NCBI RefSeq assembly: GCF_003790525.1
Contig: NZ_CP033635.1
Origin: Escherichia coli
Lineage (GTDB): Bacteria; Pseudomonadota; Gammaproteobacteria; Enterobacterales; Enterobacteriaceae
Length of the DNA: 64,000 nucleotides
Reading direction: 5' to 3' (one strand)
This document shows positions 47,701 through 53,700 of the stretch, piece by piece. A program made the position numbers. Position 1 is the stretch's first letter. The number at the start of each line of letters is the position of its first letter.

Positions 47701-50700
47701 ACGATAAAGCTGCCCTGATTGCGAAATCTCGCGATACCTTTATTCGTCTGCTGAACGCCACCCCGAACGGTGTGATCCGCAACTCCGACGTGGCAAAAGG
47801 TGTGGTCGAAACCTCCCTGAACGTCGGTGTGGTGACCATGACTGACAATAACGTAGAAATTCACTGCCTGATCCGTTCTCTGATCGACAGCGGTAAAGAC
47901 TACGTGGTGAGCATGCTGGATTCGCTGGGTAAACTGGCTGGCGCGAAAACCGAAGCGAAAGGCGCATATCCTGGCTGGCAGCCGGACGCTAATTCTCCGG
48001 TGATGCATCTGGTACGTGAAACCTATCAGCGTCTGTTCAACAAGACGCCGAACATCCAGATTATCCACGCGGGCCTGGAATGTGGTCTGTTCAAAAAACC
48101 GTATCCGGAAATGGACATGGTTTCTATCGGGCCAACAATCACCGGTCCACACTCTCCGGATGAGCAAGTTCACATCGAAAGCGTAGGCCATTACTGGACA
48201 CTGCTGACTGAACTGCTGAAAGAAATTCCGGCGAAGTAATTATTTGATTTGCTGCCGGATGGCGTTTAATCGCCTTCCGGCAGTTTCATCCTTCATTATC
48301 CTTCGATAAAAGCCATCCCTGTGAACGTTCGTCGCGGGTTGCCACGTTCAATCTGGTGATGGAACATTCGCCGCTGCGATTTCAGCGCCGCGCTATTTTC
48401 CTGTTGCTGTTGTTCCAGCTTCCAGGCAATCAGTAATCGCGCCAGCCGTTTGTTAGCATGCTGACTGCGCTCTGACTGAACCTTCACGCTAATACCGGAT
48501 GCCAGATGCGTGGCGCGTACCGCCGAGTCGGTTTTATTGACATGTTGACCGCCCGGCCCCGACGAACGCAGCGTCTCATAACGGATCGCGTCGGATTGTT
48601 CCTGCTCATCAGCGGTAAAACGCCCAATGCCCAGAAACCAGTTTTTGCGCCCATGATGAGGCCGATACGGACTCGGACAAATCCACTGGATAGTGCCACA
48701 CCAGCTTTCGCTTAGAGCCCATGCGTTATCGCCATCCAGAGAAATCAGCGCCGAACGCATTGTGTCAGGATAGCGCCCCGCTTCTGTTTCCAGCACCGTT
48801 ATCGCGACGTCTTGTCGGGTAGCTTCTTTAATCAACCTGTCCAGCGCCTTTTTCACTGCCAGGCAACATTCTTCCGGCCCCTGAGCTGAGGAGAGTTGTA
48901 GCAAGATCATCCTTTTTTCCCTCCACTGTTTTTGAGCGTTAGCACCGGACGCAGTCGCGCGACAGGAATAATTAACCCAGCCTGCACCAGACATTGCACC
49001 ACGCTTTCAGCCGATTTATAAGCTTGTGGCGCTTCTTCAAAGATGAGTTGTTTATCGCGACAAATTACCCGGCTGCCAAGTTCAGTACGTGAGAGCTGCG
49101 TCGCTGTGTATTTCGCTGCCAGACGCCCTTTACACTCGGTGCGCCCCCATTTACGCCCAGCCCCATGCGCCAGCGAATGCAATGTTTCCTCACTCCTGAC
49201 GGGCTGAACCAGCCAGGAGTAATCACCGCGTGAACCGGGAATAATCACCAGACCGTTGTCATCCGGTGTGGCACCTTTACGATGCAACCAGCCCTGTTGA
49301 TCACCGATTCGACACGCGCTAACAAAGTTATGCGCCACATCCAGAACCGAATTACCGTTGGCCTTAATCTGTTGCATTATGCGCAAAGCGATCAGCTGGC
49401 GATTAATACGCGCAAACGCCAGCGCATCATCATGTTCCACAATATAACTTAGCGCGTCGTCACTGCCTTCAGGCAAACCATGATGCGAAAACGAGGCAAT
49501 ATGCCGCTGTAAAATAGACTGGCCCAAACCCCGCGAGCCGCTATGAACCAGCAGTTGCAGATGCTGCGCATCCAGACCTGTCAGTGCAAACAGTTCAGCG
49601 TCGATAATTTCATCAACTTGTTGCAGTTCTGCGAAGTGGTTTCCGCCACCGATGGAACCCAGCGAGCTGCGCCACGGATGCTGTGCTAACGCTGACGGCA
49701 GGTTTTCCTCCAGCCAGCTTTCTTCAGCAACGTCATCCAGCGCAGATAATCGCTTTTCAAACTTATCGGCGTTGTATTTGCGCGCGAAAATATCTGTTTG
49801 CCATAGCGCCATACCGCAGCCGATATCATTGCCGACCAGTGCCGGGTAAAAACGGCCTACGGAGAAGAACGCTGCGCCAATCGGATAGCCGCGTCCGGGG
49901 TGTAAATCTGGCATCCCTACTACGCGTTGCATGTCGGGTAAATTTGCCGTGGTGTGTAATTGTTGGATCGCTGAACTCTCGATCCACAGGTCATCAGATG
50001 CGATGGTAAGTACCGCATCAGATAAGGGACGAATATATTTGCCCATGTACCATTCCATTTATGAATAAAAATCAGGAAATGGCAGACGAATCCAGGGCAA
50101 GAAAAAAAGAATTAATCCTGGAAAGGTCTGCAAAGAGTCATTGATAAAGGATTTGTCATGATTTACCTCCTTGCAGTTTGTGGAATAAGAAAACGCGCAC
50201 ATACTAGGCGGGCGTTATTTTCTTTGCAAGCTGGATTTAATGTTGCGGTTTATATCGCATATAAAAATTAGTAAACCACGCTCCCCGGCATTCAACGCGC
50301 TGCTGCTTAACTGTCTGAAAACCATAACGTTCAAAAAAGGGTTTTGCGGTTATGCTGGCGTCCACCGTAAGTTCGGATTCAGACTTAATCAAAGGTTTTA
50401 ACAAAGCGCTGGCAACCCCGCGTCGGGTGTATTCAGGTTCAACAAATAACATATCGATATAATGTCCAATGCGGGTAATAAAACCAACCGGTTGTGCATT
50501 AATAACTGCAACCCGCACTTGTGATTTCGCGAGTTTCTCCTTCCAGCGAGATTCGTCAATCTGCGCCCAGGCGGCAATTTGTTGTGGTGAATAATGCTGA
50601 CTGGCGGTCATCGTAACCGCTCTAAGGAAAATAGCGCATAGTTGCTGAAAATCGCCAGGCTGATAGTTTCTTATTTGTATGTTATTCATAATATAAATTC

Positions 50701-53700
50701 AAAAACGCATGCGAAACGCTTCTGCCATTTTCCCAATTTTATGCATTTGGTTGTTATCTCGAGCCAGTTTATGAGGTTCAGGTTTCAGAATGGCAATGAG
50801 CAACCATGCTTGCTCATCAAACGCACCCTGACAATATACCAAATGCGCTTCGTCATTCGTTCTGCTGAATTGGCGCAACTGTGGCGGAAATGGATTATTC
50901 ACATTTGCCAGATGAATATGAGCAACTCGCTCAAATTTGATTAATGGCCAGGTAAACGAGTCGTCGTAGGAGTGCATCGCGACCAAATATATCTGGCAAA
51001 ACACCGTCACGCTTATAGGAAATAAAATCCGCCGTTAACGCATCAAGTTCCTCTGCTGTAAGTTGCAGGCGAATAAGTTTTGTTTTGAATACCCGCATCC
51101 TTATTCCTTAAAGTCATTGAAATCATCATCCGTCATATCATTAAGATATTGTTCAGCGCGGCGTGTAATTTCCTCTAATCTTGCGGCACTCGGACGGAAG
51201 CGCGCCTTAACCAGTTTTTTCTCCTCTTGTTCAGCAAGCATGTCCATTAACGCTTCAAATGCGCTGGCACTTAAGAGATATCCTGCGGGGCGATTATTAG
51301 AAAGAACCGCAACCGGTTGATCAATAAAGTATTTAGCTGGGTTTTTACGTAACTCAGTGATATTGACCGATTTTTCAGCGAGAATTCGATGCATACAGTG
51401 ATCCCCTCATAATAATGCACATCAGAATATACATAATAGTATACATCATAATCCCAGCACCAGTTGTCTTTCCATTTGAGGGTCAAGTAACGTCACATGC
51501 AGCCCCACCAGACGCACACCGCGCCCGCCGCGACGTTCATCCCAGGTTTTACGCGCGGTGGCGATTAGATCAGCTTTATTCAGCCGCGGCCAGACGTGCT
51601 CCTGAGTGGTTTGCTGAAAATCATCAAACTTTAATTTCACCCCCTGGCGAGCAATCAGTAAATCAGGTTTTACCTTTGCCAGACGGCGTTCAAGTTCAGG
51701 ATACAGCCGCTCGATAATCGCTTCACATTCAGACCAGTGATGAATATCTTCCGCCATCGTGCGTTCCACGCCGACGGATTTTCGCAACCGTTCACTGTTA
51801 ACGTCGCGCTCGTCAATCCCCTGACTACGCTCCCACAAAATGCGGCCAAATTTGCCAAAACGTTTGAGCAGAGTCACCAGATCACACTTTTGCACATCAC
51901 CGCAGGTCCGCAGCCCCATCGCTTCCAGTTTTGCCGCCGAGACTTTGCCGACGCCGGGAATTTTTGCCAGCGGTAAGGTTTGCAGAAATGCCGGAACTTC
52001 TGCCGGAGTAATCACAAACTGACCGTTGGGTTTATTCATGTCGGAAGCAATTTTGGCGAGAAACTTTACCGGCGCAACGCCCGCAGATGCCGTCAGTTGC
52101 AGCTCGTTAAAGATCGTCTGACGGATTTCCTTGGCGATGAGGGTCGCAGAACCGTGGCAATGCACACTATCGGTGACGTCGAGATAGGCTTCATCCAGTG
52201 ATAACGGTTCAATGCGCGAGGTATAGCGCGAGAAAATTTCGCGGATATGATTTGAGGCTTCTTTGTAGGCGTCAAAGCGCCCCGGAAGCAAGGTGAGATG
52301 TGGGCATAATTTGAGTGCCATCCCTGTCGGCATAGCGCTGCGTACGCCAAATTTACGCGCGGGATAATTGGCGGTGCTGATCACCCCCCGACGTTCGCGG
52401 CTGCCGCCAATAGCAATAGGGATATCGCGCAGGGCGGGATTGTCGCGCATCTCCACCGCTGCGAAAAAGCAGTCCATATCCACATGAATGATTTTACGCA
52501 TTGCTCACCTCTCAACACTGGTAAAGTATACAGTGATTTCAGGGTTTGAGAAATGCGTAAAGATTCAGCATTTAACGCGTTCGCTGTGAAAGCACCTGCT
52601 GCTTATCCAGCTTTTGCACCAGCGGCTGCACCACTTTATCCCCATGCTGACCAAAGTATTGATACAGCGTATCGGACGCGCTTTTAGTCAGCACCATAAT
52701 CTCAATGCGCCGGTTGCCCGCGCTTTGCGGATTTTTCGCGTCCAGCAGCATCTGGTCCGCCATTGCGCTCACCTGCATCACTTTATCTTCCGGCATTCCT
52801 GCCTCTTCCAGCACCCGACGAGCCGAAAGCGCGCGGTCACCCGAAAGGTTCCAGTTGTTGTAGATATTGTTTTTGTAGGCCATCGCATCGGTATGCCCGG
52901 TAATAATAATTTTGTTATCGAGCGAGTCGAACACTGGCGCGAGCTCCACCAGCAGCGTTTTAAAGAACGGCATAATCTGCGCGCTGCCACGTTCGAACAT
53001 ATTGCGATTCTGGTCGTCTTTAATCAGCACGCGTAATCCCTGCGGGACAATCTCCATCTCCAGATTCGCTTCCATATGCGCATCACGGGCAATGGTGTTG
53101 ATACTGGTTGCCAGCTCACCAAGCTCGGTGGCGGATTTCTTCTTCAGCAGCGCCGTTTTCTCGTTGACGTCGCGCGCTTTTTTCTCCGTCTCTTCCGGCA
53201 CTGCCACGGTGGCAGGTTTTGACGGATGAGACGGGCTGATTTTATTTAACGGCGACAGCCCGCCACCGTTAAAAATCGACTGCCCGTGTAGCGCGGCGAT
53301 AATGCTTTCACGCTCGGATTTACTGACGCTGTTGACAATCCACAGCGTCATAAACAGCGCCATCATTGCCAAAGTAAAATCGGCGAACGCCACCTTCCAC
53401 GCCCCGCCGTGGTGCCCGGCATGATTCTTTTTGATCTGCCGCCGGACGATGGTGGTTTTTGCCCCACGCTCGCGGCGGTTGCCCGTCTTTCTCATGCTTA
53501 TTCTTGCTCCAGCATCGCATTCACCCACGCGTCGAGGTTGGCGAACGTCGGTTTGGACGCCAGATGCAGCAACTTACGCCCGGCGTCCACCGCCAACAGC
53601 GTCGGTTTGCCGCCCGCCTGGGCCACCAGCACGGTACGCACACACTCCAGCAGCGAATGTTCCGCCCGCGCCTGCTGTTCCATGGCGTTGGCGAGCGGGT

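Follow-up and report, generated by a model that had tools for sequence, protein, structure and literature searches.

The toxin gene yafO of the dinB-yafNOP SOS operon is interrupted by a single-base insertion in the stretch of DNA analyzed here, 64,000 nucleotides (nt) of the Escherichia coli contig NZ_CP033635.1 (assembly GCF_003790525.1; hereafter the window). We read the resulting frameshift as a genuine and recent loss of function that has become fixed in the sequence type 354 (ST354) lineage of phylogroup F, and assign this reading a probability of roughly 90%. The lesion is already on record through a pseudogene annotation in RefSeq, and it is a case of ordinary gene decay. The gene, the extra base and the two open reading frames (ORFs) are arranged as follows.

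50699..51098, minus strand: yafO pseudogene, 400 nt compared with 399 nt in the intact gene, frameshifted by a 1-nt insertion
50969..50970, minus strand: CC dinucleotide with the extra C, a single C in the intact allele; context GCA CTC C TAC, alignment column 129
50931..51098, minus strand: N-terminal ORF of 55 codons plus stop, comprising YafO residues 1-43 and 12 out-of-frame residues (LRRLVYLAINQI), with the TGA at 50931-50933
50699..50968, minus strand: +1-frame remnant that encodes YafO residues 44-132; a mechanical ORF reaches up to GTG 51010, with an in-frame ATG at 50977

The insertion is the only difference between this gene and an intact one. In a DNA alignment with the intact AR_0077 allele, there was a single gap column and the sequences were otherwise the same over 400 columns, with 399/399 aligned bases identical. 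The intact GCA CTC TAC has become GCA CTC C TAC, the surplus base being either C of 50969-50970. Codons 1-43 (MRVF...GRDAL) encode a segment with 100% identity to intact YafO, and residues 44-132 are found in the +1 frame with 89/89 identities. The frame break is thus located where the original prediction had placed it, with the ATG at 51098, 43 intact codons and the C-terminus in the +1 frame, except that the displaced C-terminal part comprises 89 residues and not about 100. Of the 103 amino acids in the mechanical ORF that starts at GTG 51010, 14 are foreign to YafO. The site of the switch, near 50969-50972, had also been given correctly, but the C-run described there is not a real one. The minus strand reads CTCC from 50972 to 50969, and the intact allele reads CTC and then T, so that a single C became CC. 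The frameshifted allele is young, as no other substitution separates it from intact alleles.

At the protein level, the Pfam YafO_toxin domain (PF13957) is broken at position 19 of its 101 profile positions, and its halves lie in two frames. The N-terminal fragment matches profile positions 2-19 with 17 bits, under the 25-bit cut-off. The C-terminal fragment matches positions 19-101 (E = 3.6e-30) and covers 83 of the 101 domain positions. A single ORF of about 130 amino acids (aa) spanning the whole domain, as in functional members of the YafO toxin family, was not found at the locus. By descent, the gene belongs to this family, as homology to yafO is full-length and found at the orthologous site between yafN and yafP, downstream of dinB. 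The RefSeq pseudogene ECSMS35_RS01430 (NC_010498.1, 295944-296343), which is marked "frameshifted", coincides exactly with 50699-51098 and is 100% identical to it. In a search for literature on this specific allele, we found no paper discussing it.

The original prediction had also considered a sequencing error in a homopolymer, in which case the extra C would be a base-calling or assembly artefact and the true yafO would be intact. Among assembly errors, single-base indels are the most frequent, and several Cs are near each other in CTCC. However, the intact sequence has only one C at this site, and hence no homopolymer, and the distribution of the insertion among genomes argues for a heritable change. 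Over its last 24 kb, the window is 100% identical to the minus strand of E. coli SMS-3-5 (NC_010498.1; the record position is 347042 - p for position p of the window). SMS-3-5 belongs to ST354 and serves as the ST354 reference (PMC9174282), and ST354 has been listed in phylogroup F (PMC12817139).

We used an 81-base query centred on the insertion to survey complete E. coli genomes. A perfect match was obtained in exactly 24 of the 2,843 genomes that carry yafO, and the remaining genomes, among the matches listed, align with one gap. The whole 400-base pseudogene is identical in all 24 carriers. When the 24-kb flank was compared, the top 24 matches were the same 24 carriers (at least 99.7% identity), and the next genome followed at 97.7%. 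No member of this clade has the intact form. The carriers have separate accessions and were obtained from humans, chickens, dogs, a pangolin, and river and surface water. In a second carrier, MINF_1A from Australia, RefSeq likewise marks the gene as "frameshifted", and the DinB, YafN and YafP proteins are the same as in SMS-3-5. In a collection of 15 billion proteins, the exact 55-aa out-of-frame product occurs on 817 public contigs and the exact 92-aa product from ATG 50977 on 801 contigs (NCBI, ENA, JGI and Logan assemblies).

The clonal distribution and the lack of a homopolymer at the site rule out a sequencing error, and we give an artefact next to no chance. Instead, the distribution indicates a single origin of the insertion and its fixation in one clone, ST354, for which the extra C can serve as a single-base marker. 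As the frame break is biological, it should stay uncorrected in the assembly.

In the same protein collection, the 90%-identity cluster that contains the 92-aa YafO fragment also contains many YafP (GNAT) proteins. This mixture is presumably a chaining artefact that arises through fused yafO-yafP gene calls (for example, P0045).

YafO has been described as a ribosome-dependent mRNA-cleaving type II toxin that is neutralised by YafN (reviewed in PMC11869752). Translation from the normal yafO ATG, which has a good Shine-Dalgarno (SD) sequence, would give a 55-aa peptide made of YafO residues 1-43 and 12 unrelated residues. This peptide retains less than one-fifth of the YafO_toxin domain and should therefore be inactive; we infer that it is unable to act as a ribosome-dependent mRNA interferase. 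For lack of a ribosome-binding site, translation of the C-terminal 89 codons is improbable. The candidate internal starts (GTG 51010, GTG 51004, TTG 50986 and ATG 50977) have anti-SD duplex energies of -1.1 to -3.1 kcal/mol, compared with a mean of -2.29 (standard deviation 2.45) at random positions of the window. If translated nevertheless, the remnant would be without the conserved N-terminal segment. Among 25 full-length YafO homologues (48-97% identity), residues 1-43 comprise 9 invariant and 13 nearly invariant columns.

The conservation of residues 1-43 argues that they are needed, and bears on whether a fragment of 89-92 aa, started at ATG 50977 or GTG 51010, could be an active toxin, alone or together with the 55-aa peptide. 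The in-frame ATG and the 92-aa product that gene finders call in many assemblies speak for such a fragment, as does its coverage of most of the domain, but the internal starts have no more than background anti-SD complementarity. They also lie 41-77 nt upstream of the stop of the N-terminal ORF, so that coupling by termination and reinitiation is unlikely. Moreover, other lineages break yafO at many places, which fits plain loss. We therefore consider an active split or truncated toxin very unlikely, and favor loss of function.

Some observations weigh against this reading. We infer the inactivity of yafO from the sequence, and gene callers do report the 92-aa ORF from ATG 50977, so that some translation is possible. 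An AlphaFold2 model of YafO, built from the 25-sequence alignment to see whether residues 1-43 belong to the fold core, was poor (mean predicted local distance difference test score 48, predicted template modeling score 0.44). A sequence search of the PDB returned no YafO relative, its sole match being a designed repeat protein at noise level (E = 0.047).

Full-length toxin could in principle still be made by translational recoding, if a +1 shift at CUC-C, before CUA CGA CGA, restored some YafO and left the gene down-tuned rather than dead. Leaving out the extra C gives exactly the wild-type protein. Past the insertion, the zero frame continues with CUA, CGA and CGA, three codons that are rare in E. 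coli, and rare codons in the A site favor +1 slippage. Bacterial pseudogenes have been reported to be expressed at a low level (PMC9122581). On the other hand, tRNA-Leu on CUC re-pairs poorly on UCC, and the site is without an upstream SD-like stimulator, without a stop at the shift position and without an A/T run for transcriptional slippage. Inspection of the lesion for a slippery codon, an SD-like stimulator or a slippage homopolymer found none of these signals. The insertion is limited to one young clone, the ORF is uninterrupted in about 2,819 further genomes, and nothing points to selection for a recoding site. Given this, we regard recoding as extremely improbable.

A further reading would make the loss of YafO adaptive and lineage-defining in the multidrug-resistant ST354, or would have +1 frameshifting at CUC-C/CUA-CGA-CGA keep a trace of full-length toxin. 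If the loss were adaptive, removal of the toxin and perhaps a lowered level of YafP, with DNA polymerase IV (Pol IV) kept, might help a lineage that is often under SOS-inducing drugs. The evidence supports neither adaptive loss nor trace frameshifting, and we hold this pair of ideas to be highly unlikely. Simple decay of yafO, fixed with the clone, remains our preferred reading.

The remainder of the operon is intact while yafO is split at codon 43/44, in agreement with the first of the two alternatives of the original prediction, toxin inactivation with the antitoxin gene retained. The other elements of the operon are the following.

51101..51394, minus strand: yafN antitoxin gene, intact, 97 aa, Phd/YefM family; protein WP_000554755.1, shared with a strain having intact yafO
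51446..52501, minus strand: dinB (Pol IV), intact, first gene of the operon
52518..52533, minus strand: LexA (SOS) box CTGTATACTTTACCAG upstream of dinB, found by pattern match
50237..50689, minus strand: yafP (GNAT acetyltransferase), intact, starting 9 nt past the yafO stop and without an SD sequence

The DinB, YafN and YafP proteins are identical to those of strains with intact yafO. YafN matches PF02604 (PhdYeFM_antitox) with E = 6.6e-8. The yafN stop codon (TAA, 51101-51103) is separated by a 2-nt gap from the yafO ATG at 51098, so that a Phd/YefM-type antitoxin gene adjoins the toxin gene, co-oriented and directly upstream, as in a YafNO module. RefSeq names the two partners inconsistently, calling YafN a "type I toxin-antitoxin system antitoxin" and YafO "type II".

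The LexA box CTGTATACTTTACCAG is found 17 nt upstream of the dinB ATG and has the CTG-N10-CAG arrangement of the SOS regulon in a promoter region. We take it to be the dinB SOS box known from K-12, and it bears out the predicted identity of the locus as the dinB-yafNOP SOS operon. The argument relies on position and sequence and not on count, as a loose LexA pattern has 13 matches in the window versus 5.3 expected. A promoter and terminator scan of 50000-52700 gave counts within chance and nothing decisive.

SOS induction in ST354 would still yield Pol IV and YafN and no YafO toxin, leaving yafN as an orphan antitoxin. Singletary and colleagues reportedly found in 2009 that, in K-12, yafN is essential only if yafO is functional.

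Effects on yafP are also conceivable. Anti-SD duplex energies are -6.1 kcal/mol for yafO, -7.1 for dinB and -8.5 for yafN, and +0.4 kcal/mol at the yafP start. Because yafP is without an SD sequence and starts so close to the normal yafO stop, its translation is perhaps coupled to that of yafO. Translation of the frameshifted gene would end early, 242 nt upstream of yafP, and YafP synthesis may drop. On this rather weak chain of reasoning, premature termination in yafO would break the coupling and might lower YafP. As a further point against our reading where it extends to polarity on yafP, the 241 untranslated nt contain no clear Rho-loading signature (C-rich and G-poor), with a C/G ratio of 0.89 overall and of at most 1.29 in short windows.

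Loss of yafO is not restricted to ST354. Among 5,426 complete E. coli genomes, yafN is present in 2,846 and yafO in 2,843, and both genes are missing from about 48% at the sensitivity of megablast. The YafNO module is therefore dispensable. Other broken yafO calls in the protein database have frameshifts near residues 60, 70, 78 and 105. In addition, three distinct read-throughs of yafO (P0007 with 269 member sequences, P0009 and P0046) run into putative ends of the insertion sequence (IS) IS1. Since many other independently disrupted yafO genes are found in public assemblies, loss of this toxin is recurrent. In 950 E. coli genomes, a published survey found orphan antitoxins to be abundant, and toxin loss or reduced repertoires to be lineage-specific (PMC10790755).

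Several other features of the window were noted. Directly upstream of dinB, an apparently intact Flag-2 lateral flagellar cluster occupies 52572-64000 on the minus strand, with genes for lafU, motA, a FliA-like sigma factor, fliK, fliS, fliD, lafA, flgL and flgK; K-12 retains only a Flag-2 remnant. Just downstream of yafP, also on the minus strand, are two intact genes with a 4-nt overlap, one for an RNA ligase of the RtcB family (48907-50046) and the other, prfH (48296-48910), for release factor H. A tRNA-Thr gene (40327-40402, minus strand) is followed by an integrase-bearing island, the region as a whole spanning 28471-40402. In this island, a 3,276-nt hypothetical gene shares an operon with genes for a response regulator and an alpha/beta hydrolase. 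The island also carries an IS3 transposase with programmed frameshift, a type IV toxin-antitoxin pair (CbtA/YeeU) and a DUF905 pseudogene interrupted by an internal stop (30462-30698). A second small coding sequence annotated as "frameshifted", for a hypothetical protein, is found at 18331-18505 and adjoins the zinc-independent ribosomal protein paralogues ykgO and ykgM.

The yafO pseudogene has small importance beyond bookkeeping. It is a further case of chromosomal toxin decay, with an orphan antitoxin left in an SOS operon. It also makes ST354, including SMS-3-5, a natural yafO null with possibly reduced YafP, which should be kept in mind in studies of dinB-operon phenotypes (SOS mutagenesis, persistence and the antimutator activity of YafP).

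Comparison with known systems places the locus as follows. The prfB gene for release factor 2 resembles it in that a +1 shift is needed for read-through and would, in yafO, regenerate the ancestral protein. Unlike prfB, the yafO site lacks an in-frame stop, a slippery codon of the CUU U type and an SD-like stimulator upstream, and it is not conserved phylogenetically; of the features of a prfB-like programmed +1 site, only the rare codon in the A site is arguably present. With the dinB-yafN-yafO-yafP operon of K-12, the locus shares order, spacing and SOS box (LexA box, dinB, yafN, 2-nt gap, yafO, 9-nt gap, yafP). It also resembles the K-12 YafNO system in the YafO_toxin and PhdYeFM_antitox Pfam matches, both YafO halves being 100% identical to the intact 132-aa allele. 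It differs from that system by the 1-nt insertion after codon 43, with which yafO cannot encode the 132-aa toxin and the antitoxin is orphaned. Like other decayed chromosomal toxin genes and orphan antitoxins of E. coli, the locus has lost the toxin and retained the antitoxin. In contrast to those other decayed genes, the lesion is neither a deletion nor an IS insertion, but one defined base that is diagnostic for ST354.

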